Virus genome (UHGV): UHGV-0007927 | Source: a virus | DNA length: 36,970 nt | Direction: 5' to 3' (one strand) | In this document: piece by piece, positions 5,524 to 36,970 of the stretch | Numbering within the stretch: the first letter of the stretch is position 1 | Layout of the letters: every line of letters begins with the position of its first letter | Position numbers and translations under genes: made by a program | Notes under the pieces: generated by a model | The model's database searches: none | What the model saw: the letters and a program-made list of their open reading frames with translations, nothing else | What the model was told of the DNA's origin: nothing

Positions 5524-5775
5524 TTACTTAAGAACGAGTCCGTTTAAGGCATCAAGGATTTTGGAAACATAACTTCCAAAAATGTAGGCGCAAAATGCGA
5601 ACACGAAACTGACAACGACCGCAGATGCCTTGATGGTGATTTTTGCTGAGCTAATGCTTGTCTCAATACCTGACAGACGAGAATCTACAGATTTTATATC
5701 TGACTTTACTTCAGCGAGATCGCGCTTGATGTATTCAACATCAGACTCTAGCTTTGCAACTCTAGCCTCAAGCAT
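5524..5775 (-). CDS. small coiled-coil protein with C-terminal transmembrane anchor (rex-position cassette, gene 2)
   Basis: ORF 5524..5895; the ATG at 5775 has a strong GGAGGT RBS and gives 83 aa: MLEARVAKLESDVEYIKRDLAEVKSDIKSVDSRL... then hydrophobic ASAVVVSFVFAFCAYIFGSYV. The upstream ATG at 5895 (123 aa) has only a weak RBS. AT-rich. Confidence 0.55.
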   Translation of the reverse strand: MLEARVAKLESDVEYIKRDLAEVKSDIKSVDSRLSGIETSISSAKITIKASAVVVSFVFAFCAYIFGSYVSKILDALNGLVLK

Positions 5776-5881
5776 GTTACCTCCGCCGTTTCCTCCACCA
5801 TGCCGTGAGTATGCATCATCAGTGGAATAGTGTCCAATTGGGCGAGATATGTTTTGATTTGGACGAAGCTGAGCAACCTTG

Positions 5882-6319
5882 TTATCTAAACTCATCGCGA
5901 ACTGATCCTGTTATCTTCACGTCAAAAAACGAACTTTTTACATCAATTACTTCGCCTTTATCAGGATTAACCAGTGATGCTCTAACTTCGAATATCCCAG
6001 GCTTGATAATTTTCACCCTTGGGAAGTTAATTCTCATAGAAGTTGATACGATGGTTTCTCCATCGTTGGCTTCTGCTACCGTAAAAAACTTATGGTTGGA
6101 GTACAGTTTTGTGTCAATTGGTATCGGTATTTCTTGAGCATTGAAAACCTCAATGCCTATGGAATATTTTTTTGTAGCCTTAAGGCCGATAAAAAAAGCT
6201 CCAAATGATAGATCCACTTCATGGGAGTCTTTATCCATTTCATAGATAAGAACTGGAGTTACTGGGTTGCCTTCATCCATCGCAATCGGAATGATATAAG
6301 AAATACGTTCTTTAATCAT
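5882..6319 (-). CDS. hypothetical soluble protein (rex-position cassette, gene 1)
   Basis: 145 aa; ATG 7 nt after the cI stop; no TM segments and no motif recognised; AT-rich; does not resemble RexA (about 279 aa) or RexB (four TM helices). Confidence 0.55.
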   Translation of the reverse strand: MIKERISYIIPIAMDEGNPVTPVLIYEMDKDSHEVDLSFGAFFIGLKATKKYSIGIEVFNAQEIPIPIDTKLYSNHKFFTVAEANDGETIVSTSMRINFPRVKIIKPGIFEVRASLVNPDKGEVIDVKSSFFDVKITGSVRDEFR

Positions 6320-6326
6320 TTACGTG

Positions 6327-7125
<799 letters not shown>

Positions 7126-27715: not shown

Positions 27716-29101
27716 ATGGCTACGTGGCAACAGGGTATTAATTCTGGTGGGTTTCTTGCTGGCATCGGTGCGCAAAATGAGAATGCGCCAAAGGCAAGCG
27801 ACATTAACGCAACGCTTGGTCTGATCCGCGAAAACAATGAACTGGCTCGCTCAGGTGCAAATAACGTTGGTCTGACCGCGTTACGTGGTCTGGCTGGAGT
27901 TGCTGATATTTATAAGCAGGAACAGCAACAGAAAGCGATTAATGCGTTCAATAAGGTTCATGCTGATGCATGGGCTTCTGGTGATCCATCGGGACTATTT
28001 AAGTTTGCCAAGGAAAATCCAGCGTTTGTTGCGCAGGCACAACAGGCGTTTTCCGGTCTTAATGAGCAGCAACGCAACGATATGGGCGATTTAGCCATGA
28101 GGGCTAACGTCGCTCTTTCTCAGGGACCGGAAGCCTACAGTAAATTCATTACTGACAATAAGGACAGGTTAAATCGCGTGGGGGCGAATGCTGACTGGAT
28201 GATTCAGACAGGTATCCAGAATCCAGAGCAGCTATCACACATGCTGACTACTATGTCTCTCGGTGCGCTTGGACCAGAAAAGGCGTTTGCTGTTCAGGAC
28301 AAGATGGCTGGTCGTGAAATTGACAGAGGCAGGCTGGCAGAGACAATCCGCAGCAATCAGGCTGGCGAGGCGCTTCAGGCGAGAGGGCAAAACCTTTCCT
28401 ATCAGTCAGCAATGACTGGACACGGACTTGCAGCAGAAAGACTGGCACTTGATAAGCAGAAATTCGGTTTTGAAGTACAACAGGCACAAAAGAAGGCCGA
28501 TGAACTTATTAATGCTGCGCCAAAACTATCCGTGAACATGGAAAAGGCTATAGAAAAATCAGCAGGTGATGCGGCAGCTAGTCGTAATGCTGCCGATTCA
28601 ATGACAACGCTTGCTGACACGCTTGAGAAGGAGAAGCCAACTCCTGGTTTGTTCGGTAACGCTGAAAATATGTTCACTAAGCTTACGGGGCAAGATAACT
28701 ACCTCCGAGATATGCGGATTAGATTCAACCAACTAGCCAATGCGCAGGCAACCAAGCTTCTCCCCCCCGGCCCTGCATCAGATAAGGATATTGAGTTTGC
28801 AAGGAAAGGCATTCCAAGCGAAACGGATAATCCAATGGTCATGGCTCGATGGTTAAGGGGTATGGCAAAAATGGAAAGTAATAACGCGAAGTTCAACGAG
28901 TTTAGGTCAGAGTGGATGAGTGCAAATGGCAGCCCAGGACAATCTGATCGCAACCGAAACATCATGGGGATGGATGTTAAGAAGGGTGAATCATTGAACT
29001 CTGCGGCAAAACGTTTTCTTTCCTCAAGTTATGGCGATAGCCAACCTCAACAGCAATTGTCCGATGACGAATTAATTAGCAAATATCTCGGAGGGCAGTA
29101 A
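27716..29101 (+). CDS. ejection protein, gp20-like
   Basis: 461 aa; synteny; helical Ala/Gln-rich composition. Confidence 0.65.
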
Positions 29102-31221
29102 TGGCCTATAGTCGTGAACAGTTGATGACGGCGTTAAGGAATGCTGATGCTGCCGGCGATACTGAGGGAGCACGTCGCATTGCTCAGATGCTGTCTTCTG
29201 GTGATCAATCCACTCAAAACCAATCGCAGCCAGAAGAACAATCTCTGGTGGGAAAAGCTACTGACTGGCTCACTGGTGGTCAAAGTGCAGGGCAAATTGC
29301 AGAACAGGCTGGTCGTGGTCTGGTAAACATACCATTTGACGTATTGCAGGGTGGCGCAAGTCTGATTAATGCAATCAGCCAGGGGCTTGGTGGCCCAAAG
29401 GTTTTGGATGATGTCTATCGTCCAGTCGATCGACCGACAGACCCTTATGCGCAAGCCGGTGAAACAATTGGTGGGTATCTCCTGCCAATTGGCACAGCGG
29501 CAAAAGCTGCTGGAGCGCCAGCAAAGCTCGCTGGAGATATCGGTTCCGCAGGAAACATGATTGCAGGTTCTCTTGCTGATGCTGCAAATCAGGAGGGCGA
29601 CTTTGCACAAAATGCTGCCATTAACGGTGGTATCAATATTGGTGCTCAGGGGATACTTTCTGGGGCTGGAAGGATCTTAACCTCTAAATCACCTCAAGTT
29701 CTTGGTGGCGGGGCAATAAATTCCGCTGCTGATGTTTCGAAAATGGCAAAGTCTGGTACAGGAAGAGAGATTATTGCCAGACAGTCAGCTAATGTGTCAG
29801 ACGAAATAGCAAAAGCAGCAGATACTGCTGGAATAGATATCAACGCATTAACTCCTGGCATGAGATCAGGTAGTCGTGGTCTTGCTCAGGCGGAGGGGAT
29901 TCTGGCGTCAAAGCCCGGAATTACACAGGATGCACACACCAAAGCATTCAGTGAAATAGAGTCGAAATTTAACTCAGCATTGGATGAGTTTGGGGCTGAA
30001 GCAGGAACTGCATCAGAAAAAAGTGCAGCCATAAAACAAAGGGTTTTGGCAAGTATTGATAAAATGAAAAATTCAGAAAAGGCTGCATGGGATAGCGTCC
30101 GCTCCACGATGCCTGACGCAAAGGCCAGAATGTCAAACCTGAATGCTACAATTCAGGGTGATATTTTGGCTGGCATGCCGCTAACTCCTGAGATGAAACA
30201 ATTCGCATCTGCTTATGCTAAAACTGGTAAAAAAGGAATCACGTTTGATGCCATGAAGGCATGGCGAAGTAAACTTGCTGACGCAGAGCAGAAGTATATA
30301 AGGTCTGGTGAGGCAAATACGGCAAGGCGCATGGCTGAGCTTCGTGATGCAGCAACGGAAGATATGCGCATAATGGCTCAAAATGGCGGTTTTCTTGATG
30401 ACTGGCAAAAAGCTAATGATCTGTCAAAGGCAAGATTTACAGCACAAGAACAGGCTGAAGCAGCGTTTGGTAGAGACCTTGCAACTGATCAGTTGGTAAC
30501 TAATGGATCTAAGGCGTTACAGGGTTCAGCAAAAAGTGGAACAGGTCAGTTCCATAAAATAATAAGCGCCCTACCTGAGTCGGAACGCGCGCCAGCAATT
30601 GCATCAATATTACAAGATGCAATGTCGCAAGGGGTACGCGGAGGTAAGTCTGAAGAGGCTGGAATTAAGCATATCGCGACTATTCTTACCCCACAAAACG
30701 TGAAGGCAATTAGTCGATATTCTCCAGAACTTGGCAGGATTACAAGTTCATACGGAGAACTTGCACGAGCAGCAACAAAGCCACTTCGATATGTTGAACA
30801 GACAGGGCGATCTATGCCAGCCATTAGCACTCTTGAGAATGGCCTTCATCCAGTTTTAGAGAGCGCATTGTCTGGCGCTTTTAGAACTATTGGCACTATC
30901 GCAGGGTTCTCTGGAGGAGGCGTTATTGGAGCAATAGCGGGTGGCGCTGCAGGTGGGGCAATTGATGCAATGGCAAAAGGAGCGATAGCGAAATTATCCG
31001 CAACCAGAAGCGGTCGTTACGCTATTGAAAAGGCTGTTCAAGAGGCAACAAAGGCAGTTAAGGTTGGGGCAAGTGATGGTGCATTAGCGGCGGCGGAACG
31101 CAGATTTATGGCAAATAAGGCCGCCGTAAAAGCAATACGCGAGGCACTAGGAAACGAAGAGTTCCAGCGTTTAGCAAGAGCTGGAATTGTGGCATCGCTA
31201 AGCGGAATGGCACAGGAGTAA
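29101..31221 (+). CDS. ejection / DNA-transfer protein, gp16-like
   Basis: 706 aa; last of three consecutive ejection-protein genes; Gly/Ala-rich segment near the C-terminus ([31 protein letters not shown]). Confidence 0.65.
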
Positions 31222-31551
31222 TTAGTCATCCATGGATGGATTGAGCTTATCTCGTGTTGATGTGGCAATTTTCCCAACATTTTTCAACCAAGATTTTAAG
31301 AAGGATATGTCGTCCTTAATATCATGAATATCCTCATTCTTTATACGATCAACCTTATCCTCTAAGCTCTCTATAGAACGCTCAATGCTAGACAGAGAGA
31401 TTTTTAAGTCCCCTTGCTCACGTTCCAGTGAGGATTTGAGAGCACAATATTCGTTTTCTAGAATTCCTATTTTTTTTGTTAGAGAGTGCATTCGATACTC
31501 ATACACCAAACCAGAAAAGACTAATGCAGCCAACAGAAACCATTCAAGCAC
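31222..31551 (-). CDS. small membrane protein: N-terminal TM helix plus acidic coiled coil (sieA-position accessory gene)
   Basis: 109 aa; GTG start 5 nt after AAGGAGG; MLEWFLLAALVFSGLVY then heptad-rich ...LKSSLEREQGDLKISLSSIERSIESLEDKVDRIKNEDIHDIKDDISFLKSWLKN...; AT-rich; 58 bp downstream of and co-oriented with the repressor-like gene. Confidence 0.55.
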   Translation of the reverse strand: MLEWFLLAALVFSGLVYEYRMHSLTKKIGILENEYCALKSSLEREQGDLKISLSSIERSIESLEDKVDRIKNEDIHDIKDDISFLKSWLKNVGKIATSTRDKLNPSMDD

Positions 31552-31611
31552 ACCAACCTCCTTAGTTTTGAACAGGATACCAGATGATAATGTGTCGCTT
31601 CCTAAAGGATA

Positions 31612-32253
31612 TCAAAGCAACGGGATTTCAAGGTAAACTGCGGTTGCCAAAATACTAACATCTTCATTTCTAACAAGAATATTAGGATACATTGGGTTTA
31701 GGGATACTAAGTTTGTCTCTATTTCACCAATGTAAACCTGCTTGAAGCTCAATATTTGCTCTTTATCCAATGATGCTATTACATAATCTTTGCTTTTAGC
31801 TTTTACTAGAGGGCTGAACGTGACAACTGATCCTCTGGGAAAGCTAATACCTGAACTTGTAGTCATAGCTTCACCTTCAATAGTCAATGCAAATGCAGAG
31901 TCACCAACATTGTATATTGCCGGATGAAATCTAGACGATGAATGTTCACCTGTGTTTAGGTAATGCATAACTTCATCTAGTTTGAGGATTGGTATTTGCT
32001 TTACCAGAACGTCAGGCATGACGTTTTTTGTTCCAGGCCCCTGACCTTCACCCAGAGCTAACCACTCAGCCGTAGTGCCTAATGCGTTGGCTAATGCCTG
32101 CAATACACGAAGCCGTGGTTTAGCCTCACCACCCTCGTATGCAGCTATTTGACGTTGAACAACACCAGCTAATTTTGACAACTGCGCCTGCGTCATACCC
32201 CTAGACTGTCTTGCCAGAGATACTCTTGATGGGAATTGATCGTCAAAATTCAT
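31612..32253 (-). CDS. repressor-like protein: N-terminal HTH (XRE type) plus C-terminal S24 LexA/CI-like domain with Ser-to-Ala at the catalytic position
   Basis: 213 aa; HTH MTQAQLSKLAGVVQRQIAAYEGGEAKP; C-domain aligns with lambda CI (AFALTIEGEAMTT vs [14 protein letters not shown]), so the nucleophile Ser is Ala; Lys retained (SFKQV vs FKKL). Confidence 0.75.
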   Translation of the reverse strand: MNFDDQFPSRVSLARQSRGMTQAQLSKLAGVVQRQIAAYEGGEAKPRLRVLQALANALGTTAEWLALGEGQGPGTKNVMPDVLVKQIPILKLDEVMHYLNTGEHSSSRFHPAIYNVGDSAFALTIEGEAMTTSSGISFPRGSVVTFSPLVKAKSKDYVIASLDKEQILSFKQVYIGEIETNLVSLNPMYPNILVRNEDVSILATAVYLEIPLL

Positions 32254-32352
32254 TAGTTCACCATAAAAAATTCATTGACTCATACTGAGTGTGAGTGAAT
32301 AATCAAACTACAAAAAGTGAGATTATGAGTTTTTCAAAAACAGGAGTGCATA

Positions 32353-32526
32353 ATGACTGAAAAGATATCTTCCATCAAGCCGCGTCAGGTTCGTTTTACA
32401 GAAAAGGTTGATTCACATATCCGCGAATCAGCAAAAAGATGCCATAGGTCAATTCAGGCAGAGATAGCTTATCGAATGGAGTTATTGATGAAACTTGAGG
32501 CAAAGGGCGATGTTGTCATCCAATAA
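32353..32526 (+). CDS. ribbon-helix-helix (Arc/Mnt-type) regulator, 57 aa, below the ORF-track cutoff
   Basis: ATG 6 nt after CAGGAG; MTEKISSIKPRQVRFTEKVDSHIRESAKRCHRSIQAEIAYRMELLMKLEAKGDVVIQ, with a beta-strand then two helices; divergent from the repressor-like gene, upstream of the antirepressor. Confidence 0.5.
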   Translation: MTEKISSIKPRQVRFTEKVDSHIRESAKRCHRSIQAEIAYRMELLMKLEAKGDVVIQ

Positions 32527-32599: not shown

Positions 32600-33226
32600 A
32601 TGAATATTGTAGCAAAATCAGATTACAACTTCCACGGAGTTGAGTTGGTGCCCACCCGTGATATGCATGGTGTTTGGTTTACATCATCTAATATTGCATC
32701 TGCACTTAAATATGCAAATAGCCGTGCAGTAACAATGATTTATAACAAGTATAGCGATGAGTTTAGCGCCGGAATGACTCAGGTACTCGAAGTGAGTACC
32801 TCAGGAAATTATCGCAAAAAAGTGCGAGTTTTCTCACTACGCGGTGCCCACCTAATCGCGATGTTTGCTCGCACTCCGGTAGCCAAAGAGTTCCGCCGCT
32901 GGGTGCTGGATATTTTGGATCGGCAGGCAGAATGCTCACCGATTGCAAAACAGTTTACTGACGAAGAACTGGTTAATCTCTGCTACTTACAATTGTGGAT
33001 GGAGAAGAGTCAACAAATGTGCAAACACATCTACCCAGGAATGAAGCAAATTGGTTCTGAGCTTTCAGGAAGAATTTACGATATTGCATATGAGACTCGC
33101 TATATGTCAGAAGAAACCAAGAAATCACTTCTTCGTGAAATGAAGAATCTTGATACCAACAATTTTGTCGTAAAGAACGCTCAGCCAATGCTGACAAAAC
33201 TGCGCGGCGAGGAATGGATTCATTGA
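32600..33226 (+). CDS. antirepressor-like protein with BRO-N/KilA-N-type N-terminal domain
   Basis: ORF 32495..33226; the ATG at 32600 (AAGGAAA RBS) gives MNIVAKSDYNFHGVELVPTRDMHGVWFTSSNIASALKYANSRAV...KEFRRWVLDIL; the family call is by pattern only. Confidence 0.55.
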   Translation: MNIVAKSDYNFHGVELVPTRDMHGVWFTSSNIASALKYANSRAVTMIYNKYSDEFSAGMTQVLEVSTSGNYRKKVRVFSLRGAHLIAMFARTPVAKEFRRWVLDILDRQAECSPIAKQFTDEELVNLCYLQLWMEKSQQMCKHIYPGMKQIGSELSGRIYDIAYETRYMSEETKKSLLREMKNLDTNNFVVKNAQPMLTKLRGEEWIH

Positions 33227-33314: not shown

Positions 33315-34043
33315 ATGACTTTGAAGAATGTAGCAAACATCGGATCCGTTGTCACGGATAAAACCATTGACAGCCAGCGCCTTCTTGAGATGGTAAATCA
33401 GGCTCGTAGACAGTGCGGTGAGCCGGAGGTTCGTAATAACAAATTCATCGAGAAAATTGAAGATGAATTGGATGGAGAGCACTACACAAAAAGTGTAGTG
33501 CAAAAAGCGAACAAAACTTCGATGGTTATCATTGAGATGTCAATCAAGCAAGCATTGCGAGTTGCCGCTCGCGAGTCAAAAGCCGTTCGCCGCTCACTGG
33601 TAGACCAACTTGAAAGTATGCAAGAAGCGCACATTAAAAGCGGTAAATCAGCGAGTGGACTTGTTGAGTATCGTCAAGCGCGAACATTGAAAATGACGGT
33701 TGAAGCTGTTACCAATCTGTTCGATCTGATGCCAAATCTTGCGCCTGAGGCAAAGCAGACAGCGGCAGCAAGTATAATCAACCCGCTCGTTGGTTTTAAT
33801 GCAATACCTCTTCCGGCAATAGAAGAGCATTACTACTCAGCAGGGGAGGTTGCAGAGCAGCTTGGAGTAACGGCCAACAAGATTGGTCGCATTGCTAACG
33901 CAAACAACCTCAAAACTGAGCAGTACGGGAAGTTCTTCCTGGATAAATCGGCGCATTCCAGCAAACAGGTAGAGGCGTTCCGTTACAATTCTGAAGGCGT
34001 TAAAGCACTACAACACCTACTACATGGCTCAAATGTGGCGTAA
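33315..34043 (+). CDS. second antirepressor-like / phage regulatory protein (ORF6N plus KilA-C-like architecture, tentative)
   Basis: The ATG at 33315 with AAGGAA RBS gives 243 aa; C-terminal ...YYSAGEVAEQLGVTANKIGRIANANNLKTEQYGKFF... resembles antirepressor C-terminal DNA-binding modules. Confidence 0.4.
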   Translation: MTLKNVANIGSVVTDKTIDSQRLLEMVNQARRQCGEPEVRNNKFIEKIEDELDGEHYTKSVVQKANKTSMVIIEMSIKQALRVAARESKAVRRSLVDQLESMQEAHIKSGKSASGLVEYRQARTLKMTVEAVTNLFDLMPNLAPEAKQTAAASIINPLVGFNAIPLPAIEEHYYSAGEVAEQLGVTANKIGRIANANNLKTEQYGKFFLDKSAHSSKQVEAFRYNSEGVKALQHLLHGSNVA

Positions 34044-34061
34044 CATTTTATAATGAAAACT

Positions 34062-34086
34062 AAACCCGCTTAATCGCGGGTTTTTT
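34062..34086. terminator. bidirectional intrinsic terminator between the antirepressor-like gene and the Mnt-like gene
   Basis: AAACCCGC-ttaat-GCGGGTTTTTT: hairpin flanked by an A-run and a T-run, so functional on both strands; the Mnt-like stop codon lies in the loop. Confidence 0.6.
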
Positions 34087-34326
34087 CTTTCCTTAGAATT
34101 TCAGCCGCAACTTCTTTTACTCGTTCCGAGATTAATGAGGCCAGCCTCTCTTCTTCATCACGATACCCGCTTACAGGTGATGGTTTGGAGAGTGATTCTT
34201 CCATCGTAGCCACAATTTCGGAATTGATAGACCTGTTATTCATTTTTGCACGCTGCTTAATCTTAGCGTGCAACTCGTGTGTAAGCCTCAAGTGAAACTG
34301 CGCCTCGTCGTATTTGCTGTACATCA
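34070..34326 (-). CDS. mnt: Mnt-like ribbon-helix-helix repressor
   Basis: ATGATG start after AGGTGAGG; ...FHLRLTHELHAKIKQRAKMNNRSINSEIVATMEESLSKPSPVSGYRDEEERLA..., closely parallel to P22 Mnt (...NGRSMNSELLQIVQDALSKPSPVTGYRNDAERLA...) but with a different beta-strand. Confidence 0.7.
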
Positions 34327-34738
34327 TCAATGCCTCACCTAATGGGTGGAATGGCATCGTAAAACCTACTGTACAAATCAACAATCGTACCGTTTCGGTA
34401 TGTAACAAACGCCAACCGTAGCCATGCTGCGGCGATTCCTTGTATCTGGAGCAAATTAAATGACAGATATTATAAATAGGAATTTTTATTTAATAATATT
34501 TGAAAATTAAAATCATGGACGATAGGAATAAAAGTAGTACTTGTCATTTTTAAGTGACGCATTAAACGCATAAAGCATATGTCTGTTGATCAAGATTCTT
34601 ACTTGTTGTAAAATAATTGTCCTGTTCATGTTGCATGGTTTTAAAATGAATAGAAGATTATTTTTCAAAACAATTGCATCTTTGTCTGCAGTCATTCCGT
34701 TTTCTTCAATATCTAAATTTTCAAACAGGATGACTAAT

Positions 34739-36970
34739 ATGCCTGATATAACTCCAAATGTTGTAATTGGGATGCCTTCGCAACTCTTCACTATGGCTCG
34801 CTCTTTTAAAGCGGTAGCCAATGGCAAAATTTATATAGGAAAAATTGACACTGACCCGGTAAATCCTGAAAACCAAATTCAGGTTTATGTAGAGAACGAA
34901 GACGGTTCTCACGTTCCTGTTTCGCAACCAATCATCATTAACGCTGCTGGTTATCCGGTATATAACGGACAGATTGCCAAATTCGTAACCGTGCAAGGCC
35001 ATTCAATGGCTGTTTATGATGCATACGGTGCGCAGCAGTTCTATTTTCCTAATGTGCTGAAGTATGACCCTGATCAGTTTAGAACAATAATAGAGTCAAA
35101 TTATGGTGCGGGGCATGTTGGTACTTCGTCTGGACTAACAATTCAGCAGTTGATTGATTCTTTTATTGTAGTTACACCACAAATGTTTGGTGAATCTGGA
35201 AAGTCAAATGATTCAACAATAGCAATTAACTCTGCATTGGACTATCTTGAGTCTCTAGGTGGTGGGATTATTTATCTTCCTCCAGGTAAATATTACGTCA
35301 GCATTGAAAAATCAGGTCATAATTATTCATGCATTAGAGTTCCCGCTAACGTAACTTTCTGTGGGGCTGGTGCTGGATCTACCATCATTCAGAGACTACC
35401 CACTGAGAGGGGGATGGATGGTGTCTTGATAACAAATAAATATTATGATACTAGAACTGGCTATGGAGCTGCCGGCAATATTGTTTTTAGAGATTTTACA
35501 ATCACTGACGGTAGCGCAACCCCAACAAGGGATTATGGTGATTTAATCGGTTTAGGTCATAGCAAAAATGTAACTATAGAGAGAGTGGAGCAAGGGAGAC
35601 ATGATCAACATTTTGTTGATATTGCAGGATCAACCGATGTAACAGTCAAAGACTGTCACGGGTCGTGTGATATGGAGGTGGACCATATTACGTGGAATTG
35701 TGATATACAGATTGATTCCGCTCAACCAAACGCAATACTTGGAATTAAAGTTGATGGCACACCTAGCACAAATATAATTATTAGCGGAAATAAACTTCAA
35801 AACAAAAGCTCAAATTTGCAAATTGAAATAGGACATGCTGGGGGAGTATATAGAAATATTATTATTTCTGATAACATACTTGATGGGGCATATTTTCAAG
35901 ACTCATCAGTTATTGGTTGTAACTCAACAACAGCTACCATTATCAATTTGAGCATAAATAACAATCAAATACTAACAAATAATATAAATTCAAGAGGTGT
36001 TAATCTTTATTGTCTTGGGAATAACGAAAAACTTATTGGTATTTCTTTTAGTAATAATATTATAAGAGGTTATGCTAGGATTGGTGCATGGTTTGGGACT
36101 AATGGTAATTATACTGGAACGAAGTTTCCTCATGATGATGTAACAATAATAGGAAATAAATTCTTTCTAACATCGCCTTCATCTGGAACATTTGTTCAAG
36201 GTGTTGTTGTTGCTGGTTGGCGATCTGTTGTATGTAGTGATAATATAGTTGAGATATATTCTGATAATGAATTTTCTTCAGGGTGTTCGGTGATATCAGT
36301 TTGGAAAAATGGTAGTGCTAAGGTAAGTGATAACAATATCTCTAGAACATGTGGTGCAACACCTGACGTATCATCTTCAGTTATTTCGTTGATACTAATC
36401 ACCCCTGAACCTTCCAGCATTGATAAGGCGTCATCAATCCATATTAATGGAAATGCTTTCTTTGGAGATATTCCTAGATATGCAATAAATCACAAAGAAG
36501 GGTGGATTGAAGGATATGACATGATAGTTGTATCAGGCTCTCATGGTAGATTTAACCAAACATTTATAGGCACGCAAGGGGCGCATATGTATGAAACGTA
36601 CCCAATTTCTGATATGACAAATTTCAATCAACCAGTGTCAATAAATGGTCAATATAGAAGGCAGGTATACAGAGGAAATATTTACAAGTCAACGTTCAAT
36701 TTGAAGAAAAATGGAAGTGAAACAAGTGGGGCTAAGGTGGATTTTTTTATATCTAATGAACGCTCAAAAATAACAGGTTCTGAACAATTGAATGTAGCAT
36801 ATATATCTCCAACTGAGTCTGTGGGAATCACCGCTACATCAATAGATTTGTCATCAGGAACACTTAATATAATTACTGGAACAAATGGTGTATCTATGAA
36901 TTTAAATCCATCCAATAAGCAGCCTGAAATAAGAAATAGCGCGTATATAAGCGCAAGGATTTCCATTTAA
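34739..36970 (+). CDS. 9: tailspike: P22-type N-terminal head-binding domain fused to a divergent parallel beta-helix receptor-binding domain
   Basis: ORF-track start 34586 is upstream; the ATG at 34739 (AGGA RBS) gives [59 protein letters not shown]..., matching the P22 gp9 N-terminus. From about residue 120 the sequence is unrelated, AT-rich and full of N-x-I/L beta-helix-like repeats. Confidence 0.8.

Follow-up and report, generated by a model that had tools for sequence, protein, structure and literature searches.

The pair of genes lying side by side on the minus strand between genes 16 and 9 of the P22-like E. coli prophage UHGV-0007927, analysed here as a window of 36,970 nt that covers the whole stretch, probably represent two modules of the ant moron (immI region) that are neighbours yet separable: a pseudoprotease repressor of the antirepressor (ant) operon, and hkcB, an independent cargo gene of the sieA slot. 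This reading is built on the sequence features of both genes, on the fold of the regulator, on the conservation of the partners of each module and on the identity of the slot. The preliminary description of this DNA had joined the two genes into a dedicated regulator-plus-effector operon. That view was not supported: of the 242 matching E. coli genomes, only 2 contained both genes, the cargo is swapped, and the partner of the regulator is the ant operon. The regulator and hkcB are adjacent modules and not a dedicated pair.

Both open reading frames were found in the ORF list where they had been placed. The region follows the gene 16 homologue (29101..31221, plus strand), which encodes an ejection or DNA-transfer protein and whose 3' end is about 98% identical in nucleotide sequence to gene 16 of HK620 and of 611R6, annotated as 'DNA transfer protein'. 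Its stop codon (31219-31221) abuts that of the small gene (31224-31222) as TAATTA, as had been reported. The absence of a terminator at this junction likewise stood, but not as a special feature; it is the rule in P22-like phages, since late transcription has to pass through this region on its way to the tailspike gene (PMC2629481). The minus strand then carries hkcB (109 aa, GTG start, 31222..31551) and the regulator (213 aa, ATG start, 31612..32253), which is identical to WP_001008290.1. The two are indeed co-oriented; the gap between them, previously given as 58 bp, measures 60 nt (31552-31611), and a sequence scan of it revealed no terminator-like site. Beyond a divergent control region of 99 bp (32254..32352), the plus strand holds the ant operon. 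Its first gene encodes a 57-aa ribbon-helix-helix (RHH) protein and is an analogue of Arc (32353..32526; PHROG 10182, with weak Pfam matches to ParD_like and Arc). It is followed by Antirepressor 1, composed of BRO-N and P22_AR_C domains (32600..33226; Pfam 1.9e-10 and 2.8e-14; PHROG 245 'anti-repressor Ant', 4e-54), and by a second antirepressor-family gene (33315..34043; PHROG 1726 'anti-repressor', 4e-100; KilA in the JEP4 annotation). Convergent with this operon and adjoining the tailspike gene, whose Head_binding domain starts near 34739, is an Mnt homologue, an Arc-family RHH protein of about 85 aa counted from its ATG (34070..34327, minus strand; Pfam Arc 8e-15; 'regulatory protein mnt' in JEP4), with a bidirectional terminator at 34062-34083. 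With antirepressor genes between genes 16 and 9, the locus has the location of a P22-type immI region. An intact lambda-type cI with VQAG, GNSM and FKK motifs is present at 6327..7040 (minus strand), and the regulator is therefore not the primary immunity repressor.

The HTH plus S24 architecture, the intact S24 fold and the exchange of the catalytic serine for alanine, all of which the preliminary description had put forward, were each confirmed. The regulator matches Pfam HTH_3 (9e-13) and Peptidase_S24 (PF00717, 1.3e-12), and its AF2 model (pLDDT 88) superimposes in Foldseek on the C-terminal domain of lambda CI, 1f39, with an rmsd of 1.8 A and a TM score of 0.84; the same search returned lambda CI 3bdn at 7e-12. 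When aligned by phmmer with 3bdn, 1f39 and 2ho0, VEGNS149MT of lambda falls on IEGEA129MT, such that the G-(N/D/E)-S-M motif that bears the nucleophile reads GEA129M, with the Ala codon GCT at 31869-31867. The Lys general base is kept, F-K192-K of lambda CI falling on F-K171-Q (AAG at 31743-31741). A point absent from the preliminary description is that the position of lambda A111-G112 is occupied by Val-Met in the alignment; neither an Ala-Gly nor a Cys-Gly scissile bond was found in linker residues 70-112, of which the segment 92-101 is helical in the AF2 prediction. Judged by these residues, the S24 domain is a pseudoprotease, with Ala in place of the nucleophile and without an Ala-Gly substrate site, and self-cleavage under RecA is predicted to be absent. 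LexA S119A and lambda CI S149A are the classic non-cleavable mutants, and the structures matched by the regulator include 1jhh and 1jhc, both of which are S119A structures.

Loss of catalytic residues is a recurrent event in the regulator family. Among 76 unique proteins, the nucleophile position is Ser in 55, Ala in 19 and Gly in 2; at the base position, Lys occurs in 51, Arg in 23, and Met and Val in 1 each. The Ser is missing from 21 proteins and the Lys from 25, both are kept in 39, and a single one has Ala-Gly at the canonical position. A close relative at 81% identity (L010/P0003) has a TCT Ser codon where the window has GCT Ala. The repeated and independent loss of Ser and Lys indicates that catalysis is dispensable, and for the many members with both residues cleavage at a non-canonical site or by another protease is possible. 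Both domains are nonetheless under purifying selection, with pN of 0.06 in the N-terminal and 0.17 in the C-terminal domain against a saturated pS of about 0.8; the pN/pS of the C-terminal domain is about 0.2 with synonymous sites saturated, and this domain diverges much faster than the nearly invariant recognition helix. We also considered that the regulator might be a decaying pseudogene, and rejected this in view of the strong purifying selection and of its 100% identity across dozens of prophages. A literature search found no paper characterising the regulator family or hkcB.

The divergent RHH-antirepressor operon is the invariant partner of the regulator in every phage type examined. About 90 regulator loci, from several phage types, have a divergent 57-aa RHH gene followed by antirepressor genes, with the RHH frame about 100 nt from the regulator in most of them, and this layout with Ant-family genes recurs in P22-like phages, in an insertion in a lambda-like tail region, at positions next to an integrase and in a Providencia phage. 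The profile of the 57-aa family matches RHH structures only (AmrZ at 1e-3, CopG-family proteins and Arc). The ant operon is thus headed by a small RHH gene, as in P22 immI, albeit of a family that differs from Arc itself, whereas the divergent gene, which in P22 encodes the RHH maintenance repressor Mnt, is here the HTH-S24 gene. Its position divergent from RHH and antirepressor genes in some 90 loci makes the regulator look like a stand-in for P22 Mnt. Since an Mnt homologue is also present at 34070-34327, Mnt could contribute to the control of ant. No match to the sar antisense RNA was obtained with Rfam at the gathering threshold anywhere in the window. The HS-1 type of ant moron, which has ant genes and no recognisable arc and for which Villafane et al. 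(2008, PMC2629481) wrote of 'a mechanism ... that differs from P22', has the same regulator as the window.

Within the divergent control region we located a Pant-like promoter on the plus strand (TTGACT 32275-32280, AATAAT 32298-32303) and, on the minus strand, a weak candidate promoter for the regulator (-10 at 32284-32279, -35 at 32306-32301; 8/12 matches, below the scan threshold). This overlapping, back-to-back pair matches the annotated geometry of Pant and Pmnt in P22. The -35 and -10 hexamers of Pant are conserved across the alignment of 59 unique intergenic regions of the regulator family, as are blocks of the ACTCAT/ATGAGT type. The window also contains a 13-bp palindrome, ACTCATACTGAGT, at 32278-32290 and an inverted repeat (32299-32309 / 32316-32326). 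A consistent palindromic operator could not be derived from the 59 intergenic regions, and half-sites are oriented oppositely in the window (ACTCATACTGAGT) and in the L039-type sequence (TATGAATAATTCATA); the operators are therefore candidates only.

From this arrangement we infer DNA binding and repression by the regulator. A dimer would bind within 32254-32352 and shut off the Pant-like promoter that serves the 57-aa RHH gene and the two antirepressor genes, its own weak promoter overlapping that promoter back-to-back, and in doing so it would take the role that Mnt has in P22. As a protein predicted to be incapable of self-cleavage, it should not release the antirepressors in response to RecA and SOS, and the switch would be non-inducible in this sense. 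Production of the antirepressors would instead take place mainly on a genome that has just entered the cell, ahead of the build-up of the regulator, and would then be damped by the RHH protein.

The small gene had been assigned to the position of P22 sieA, and the correspondence goes further than position, as the slot, the leader, the ribosome-binding site and the GTG start are all common to sieA. The 33-nt leader, GGTATCCTGnnCAAAACTAAGGAGGTTGGTGTG (31549..31581, minus strand), includes the AAGGAGG ribosome-binding site (31563-31557), which lies as described upstream of the start codon, at a distance of 5 nt, and the GTG itself (31551-31549); it is identical upstream of P22 sieA and of HK620 hkcB. 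Among 12 upstream classes that were compared, a TATCAT-like -10 recurs just upstream of the leader in several unrelated ones, with no conserved -35. In the window a candidate cargo promoter, TTGATA-17-CATTAT (31587..31615, minus strand; 9/12 in a consensus scan), overlaps the stop codon of the regulator and falls, in the alignment with P22, on the stretch annotated there as putative PsieA.

This slot is filled by interchangeable genes. In IMG/VR, 118 open reading frames start at the GTG of the leader and belong to 11 unrelated families, the commonest being hkcB with 35; at least 12 cargo families were found in the slot, and mosaic junctions are located at the leader. Downstream of a regulator 100% identical to that of the window, other prophages have at least ten cargo genes other than hkcB, among them SieA type A (PHROG 7745, 7e-109), SieA type B of E. 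coli HS (6.5e-21) and further unrelated membrane proteins. All cargo types found behind this identical regulator contain a segment that is TM- or signal-like. The SieA type B gene of E. coli HS has been shown to exclude P22-like phages (PMC10883804). The start codon of P22 SieA was called uncertain by Leavitt et al. (2024, PMC10883804); initiation of all cargo families at the same GTG supports its 164-aa form. The fixed leader, with its ribosome-binding site and GTG, probably forms the junction through which P22-like phages swap genes for small membrane proteins of unrelated families.

As for hkcB itself, it matches PHROG 5962 over its full length (residues 2-109, E = 7e-61) and has 97% amino acid identity to hkcB of HK620 and 50% to gp14 of epsilon34 and hkcB of CUS-3. 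It is AT-rich, as noted before (37.6% GC versus 46.9% for the window), and a dN/dS of 0.15-0.27 establishes that it is a real coding gene. The hydrophobic segment is N-terminal, with a Kyte-Doolittle peak at residues 1-17, and the AF2 model is a single helix of residues 2-103 (pLDDT 85). The protein resembles neither SieA nor any PADLOC model, and no Pfam family scored above threshold; Pfam and PADLOC yielded only sub-threshold coiled-coil noise (BicD, DivIC, DpdH, LmuB). The protein has neither the three or four TM helices nor the FxRYPxEAxxFNK motif of SieA, and PHROG 7745 gave no match. By its sharing of the slot, an argument from association, hkcB is a plausible candidate for an exclusion protein. 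It would most likely be made in the lysogen as an inner-membrane-anchored, oligomeric coiled-coil protein, whose most probable role, to go by its position and company, would be to hinder superinfecting phages, for example at DNA delivery.

Several other readings of the locus were weighed. If the two genes formed a dedicated operon, a non-inducible regulator with a dead S24 domain would drive its own membrane effector, hkcB, for exclusion or abortive infection. The co-orientation and the terminator-free gap are in keeping with this, P22-like prophages with the regulator always have a co-oriented membrane-protein gene next downstream, and a second regulator type, at 41% identity, also precedes the same leader plus cargo. 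However, besides the rare co-occurrence in E. coli genomes, the regulator lies upstream in just 11 of the 118 leader-bearing loci and of 3 of the 35 hkcB genes; HK620, 611R6, CUS-3 and epsilon34 all carry hkcB without this regulator; and outside P22-like phages the gene downstream of the regulator belongs to convergent structural genes, the conserved partner being the ant operon. We thus find a dedicated operon unlikely. With no terminator in between, hkcB could be co-transcribed from the regulator promoter, but such co-transcription is not a conserved design. We are equally sceptical of a signal-responsive transcription factor, in which the pseudoprotease domain would act as the sensor of a ligand or protein and the regulator would activate or derepress the ant operon as an SOS-independent induction module. 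Modules of a transcription factor and a small ORF have been described that inactivate cI by a route independent of SOS (Silpe et al. 2023, PMC10432266), and here too a transcription factor diverges from a 57-aa frame that is followed by genes for repressor-inactivating proteins; the fast divergence of the C-terminal domain relative to the recognition helix is also what would be expected of a sensor or the target of an antagonist. On the other hand, the small ORF encodes a DNA-binding RHH protein and not an antirepressor peptide, the promoter geometry mirrors the repressive Pant/Pmnt pair of P22, no ligand-binding feature was identified in the regulator, and the locus has no sequence relationship to the published modules.

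Our preferred reading, a non-cleavable repressor next to an independent cargo gene, also has to be set against continued proteolysis of the regulator, through another nucleophile or site or in trans by a competent CI, LexA or a host protease, which would render the ant operon SOS-inducible. Lys171 and the fold are retained, and both Ser and Lys are present in 39 of the 76 family members, the close relative L010/P0003 having the Ser. Nevertheless, the established behaviour of LexA S119A and lambda CI S149A, the linker devoid of AG and CG, and the independent losses of Ser and Lys within the family make this highly improbable. A less remote alternative concerns hkcB, which might be slot cargo with a role other than exclusion, in lysogenic conversion or the envelope, or in modulating DNA ejection or late gene expression of the phage itself. 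Its family resembles neither SieA nor any defence model and is narrow, with every member annotated 'hypothetical'; its conserved C-terminal 44 residues are part of a single conserved block of DNA that also includes the 3' end of gene 16; and a cross-tabulation of gp16 C-terminal type against cargo type links hkcB types to particular C-terminal types of gp16. The last linkage was set aside as a sign of interaction, being inseparable from physical adjacency, which alone would be expected to produce it. The leader and position are those of proven SieA genes, and prophage exclusion loci are typically marked by just such a hypervariable slot, filled with small membrane proteins. A non-exclusion role therefore seems to us possible, if doubtful.

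A bolder version of the two-module reading is possible, but less likely than not. It would make the sieA leader a hot spot of exclusion cassettes, with at least a dozen unrelated small envelope proteins exchanged at one fixed translation start, hkcB a novel coiled-coil protein with a single membrane pass that inhibits the gp16/gp20 DNA-delivery conduit, and the HTH-S24 pseudoproteases a widespread, mobile master switch of ant operons, blind to SOS or differently signalled, that replaces Mnt in many phage types. In any event, the regulator and the RHH gene supply a candidate regulator and the 'missing arc' for those P22-like ant morons whose control was seen to differ (Villafane et al. 2008). 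A CI-like family that repeatedly sheds S24 catalysis while keeping the fold offers a natural test bed for roles of this domain other than cleavage. In addition, sieA emerges as one of a larger set of interchangeable membrane-protein cargos with a single leader and start codon, and hkcB and about ten other families can be nominated as candidates for superinfection exclusion directed against the gp7/gp16/gp20 injection conduit.

Placed among known systems, the regulator has the HTH_3, linker, S24 beta-fold and Lys base of lambda CI, P22 C2 and LexA (MEROPS S24), with lambda CI as its best match in both structure and sequence; unlike these proteins, it has Ala as nucleophile and no Ala-Gly, and its gene is situated within the late region, opposite an antirepressor operon. 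The locus resembles P22 immI in lying between genes 16 and 9, in an ant operon headed by a small RHH gene, in a divergent repressor of the maintenance type with an overlapping promoter pair, and in a sieA-slot gene downstream of that repressor. It departs from P22 in that the divergent repressor is an HTH-S24 pseudoprotease and not the RHH protein Mnt, the Arc analogue belongs to a distinct RHH family (PHROG 10182), the antirepressors come in the BRO-N/P22_AR_C and PHROG 1726 types, no sar was detected and the Mnt homologue is located elsewhere (34070-34327). With P22 SieA (types A, B and C; PMC10883804), hkcB shares the slot, leader, ribosome-binding site, GTG, orientation and small membrane-protein character, yet it has one N-terminal hydrophobic segment and a helix of about 85 residues where SieA has 3-4 TM helices. 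The hkcB gene of HK620 and gene 14 of epsilon34 (PHROG 5962) occupy the same position beside gene 16, and nothing substantive differs (PMC2629481), except that in HK620 a P22-type PsieA region precedes hkcB where the window has the regulator gene. Finally, GfoR and GtgR of the Gifsy prophages (Lemire et al. 2011, PMC3121763) are likewise repressors without self-cleavage that are combined with antirepressor genes in lambdoid prophages, where induction goes through the antirepressors. In Gifsy, the primary repressor is itself non-cleavable and LexA governs the antirepressor (PMC3121763), whereas in the window it is apparently the antirepressor that the non-cleavable protein controls, and the primary cI is cleavage-competent.

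Phages JEP4, HK620 and vB_EcoP-611R6 are, over the interval considered here, the closest sequenced relatives of the window, a P22-like E. coli prophage of Lederbergvirus type. Both genes of the interval lie where the preliminary description had placed them: a 213-aa repressor-like regulator (31612..32253, - strand) and, 3' of it, a 109-aa ORF (31222..31551, - strand) with a GTG start, AAGGAGG 5 nt upstream and a stop codon that forms TAATTA with that of gene 16, which ends at 31221. That no terminator follows gene 16 is expected, since late transcription must cross this region on its way to the tailspike gene (PMC2629481).

The regulator combines HTH_3 and Peptidase_S24 domains; its sequence matches WP_001008290.1 of E. 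coli HS prophage HS-1, and likewise JEP4 'C2', at 100% identity. The Ser-to-Ala change first proposed for its nucleophile holds and was, if anything, understated: residue-by-residue alignment to lambda CI structures sets Ala129 (GCT, 31869-31867) on Ser149 and Lys171 on Lys192, Val-Met stands opposite the scissile Ala111-Gly112 bond, and no AG or CG was found in the linker. The AlphaFold model (pLDDT 88) lies at 1.8 A rmsd from the lambda CI C-terminal domain. In the primary, lambda-type cI of the window (6327..7040), nucleophile, base and scissile site are all three intact; at the rex position 3' of it are two co-oriented ORFs of 145 and 123 aa (5524-6319, - strand), for which no Pfam or PADLOC family was found, and the related E. 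coli E272 prophage carries a BstA C-terminal-domain protein at this position.

Among 76 unique proteins of the regulator family, the nucleophile position holds Ser in 55, Ala in 19 and Gly in 2, the general base position holds Lys in 51, Arg in 23 and Met or Val in one each, and Ala-Gly occupies the canonical site in a single protein. At the window's GCT (Ala) codon, relatives at 81% identity have TCT (Ser), and those at 76% and 71% have Ala. Since both Ser and Lys are lost among relatives, catalysis seems dispensable, and the pseudoprotease state would be a trait of the family. The C-terminal domain is under purifying selection (pN 0.17-0.20 against saturated pS), presumably being kept for dimerisation or other protein contacts, and the recognition helix (VVQRQIAAYEGGEAKPR) is near-invariant. 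Many family members, such as P0012-P0021 (265-287 aa), carry a coiled-coil-like C-terminal extension of ~50-70 aa (e.g. ...ERLSALENRLDEIMHLI...), missing from the window's regulator, which may be an added oligomerisation module. JEP4 'repressor protein C2' (MT740315.1, 4064-4633) is annotated with a start 24 codons too far downstream, so that the first HTH helices are missing from it.

IMG/VR, Logan and ENA assemblies, NCBI genomes and a Providencia phage supplied ~90 loci with regulator relatives (32-100% identity). Most have a divergent ORF of ~57 aa (32353..32526, + strand, in the window) ~100 nt from the regulator gene, and this ORF is followed by antirepressor-family genes (here 32600..33226 and 33315..34043, + strand) of BRO-N, P22_AR_N/C, pRha or PHROG 1726 type. 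This layout recurs in P22-like prophages, among the tail genes of a lambda-like genome, next to an integrase and in other backgrounds. As the profile of the 57-aa family matches only ribbon-helix-helix (RHH) DNA-binding proteins (AmrZ at 1e-3, followed by CopG-family proteins and Arc), the protein is a predicted Arc analogue; the HS-1 type 'ant moron' had been recorded as lacking arc, with control presumably unlike that of P22 (Villafane et al. 2008, PMC2629481). A Pant-like promoter (TTGACT-17-AATAAT, 32275-32303) has hexamers conserved through the regulator family, and on the opposite strand the sequence allows a weak divergent promoter, whose -10 overlaps the Pant-like -35 and whose -35 overlaps the Pant-like -10, the same back-to-back geometry as the annotated Pant/Pmnt pair of P22. 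Consistent operators could not be defined in the regulator-RHH intergenic region by family comparison. We consider it likely that this non-cleavable CI-fold repressor silences the RHH-ant operon during lysogeny, when it would act as the maintenance repressor and functionally replace Mnt. With cleavage lost, SOS would be unable to release Ant through the regulator, and Ant would be made mainly from the infecting genome, as in P22.

The RHH protein is 80-91% identical to the window's in a group of loci (L007-L009, L039-L049) whose regulator is only 44-46% identical, which places a mosaic boundary inside the ~100-bp control region (window 32254-32526 compared); judged from these identities, the RHH gene and its promoter side must have been exchanged separately from the regulator. 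Convergent with the ant operon is a Mnt homologue (34070-34327, - strand; terminator at 34062-34083) whose N-terminal beta-strand has diverged; it may survive from a P22-type immI that has lost its arc-ant genes. Between it and the start of the tailspike gene, whose Head_binding domain begins near 34739, lies an AT-rich stretch of ~410 nt (34328-34738).

The 109-aa ORF is hkcB (PHROG 5962, 7e-61), 97% identical to HK620 hkcB and ~50% to epsilon34 gene 14 and CUS-3 hkcB, relatives that carry no assigned function (PMC2629481). It had been read as forming an operonic pair with the regulator, and as no terminator was found between the two, read-through is possible. The pairing itself did not hold up: homology to HK620 and 611R6 (gene 16 and hkcB) stops near 31582, that to JEP4 and HS-1 (regulator, RHH and ant) starts near 31549-31558, so that a mosaic junction falls at the leader of hkcB, and of the 242 E. 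coli genomes with a match anywhere in the interval, only 2 have both genes. Outside P22-like phages, none of the ~90 loci examined has a co-oriented gene 3' of the regulator. For hkcB itself there is a candidate promoter (TTGATA-17-CATTAT, 31615-31587) that overlaps the regulator stop codon. The gene is very probably a module independent of the regulator. A defective prophage of E. coli E272 (NZ_CM173936.1) joins a replication gene straight to the regulator module and keeps only the first few codons of hkcB, which shows that a deletion ended at the sieA leader.

That hkcB sits where P22 carries sieA can be put more strongly than before, as its 33-nt leader (GGTATCCTGnnCAAAACTAAGGAGGTTGGTGTG, 31581-31549) is identical to the stretch directly upstream of P22 sieA, GTG start included. 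Elsewhere, a 100%-identical regulator is followed, at the same start, by SieA type A (164 aa; PHROG 7745, 7e-109), in E. coli HS by a 212-aa SieA type B with a variant leader (motif FNRYPGEARKFNK), or by unrelated proteins of 62, 75, 103/106, 109, 129 and 149 aa, each of which has a TM or signal-like segment. In JEP4, the 62-aa membrane ORF that begins at the leader 3' of 'C2' was left unannotated. An exact-match scan with the 22-nt leader core hit at least 120 viral contigs (loci L095-L214). Among the matches listed, the leader (L093:833-865, - strand, in P22) supplies the GTG start of 118 ORFs of 11 unrelated families, hkcB being the commonest (35/118), the upstream contexts number at least 12, and an HTH-S24 gene lies upstream of only 11 of the 118. 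An identical leader with such varied cargos means that hkcB fills the slot of sieA and draws on its expression signals, as one of a dozen alternative cargos. The shared GTG also supports the 164-aa form of P22 SieA, whose start has been called uncertain (162 or 164 aa; Leavitt et al. 2024).

The small ORF is a real coding gene, with an overall dN/dS of 0.27 that falls to 0.15 in the conserved last 44 codons. A hydrophobic stretch at its N-terminus, with positive charges after it, and a single continuous helix predicted over residues 2-103 agree with the topology first ascribed to it and suggest a membrane-anchored coiled coil. [quoted passage not shown] Proteins P0044 and P0045 carry this segment behind an unrelated N-terminus that lacks a TM segment. 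HS1 sieA cloned with 106 bp upstream excludes P22-like phages experimentally (Leavitt et al. 2024, PMC10883804). Because no homology of hkcB to SieA or any defence family was found, an exclusion role draws on position, shared leader and company; we would only tentatively, and with some doubt, picture hkcB as a prophage-expressed inner-membrane protein interfering with superinfecting P22-like phages. Cargo type correlates with gp16 C-terminal type in L001-L038 and the window (clusters 3 and 4 for hkcB, mainly cluster 1 for SieA), a correlation inseparable from the physical adjacency of the genes. P22 SieA-escape mutations map to the gp16 C-terminus.

In the literature searched, we found no description of an S24-pseudoprotease repressor family governing a mobile RHH-antirepressor module, nor of a fixed leader/start-codon joint exchanging unrelated membrane-protein genes, sieA included. 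Both the family, as conserved regulator of that module, and the joint, with its many cargos, appear to be undescribed. Every component has a known relative, in CI/LexA, immI, the sieA slot and hkcB.
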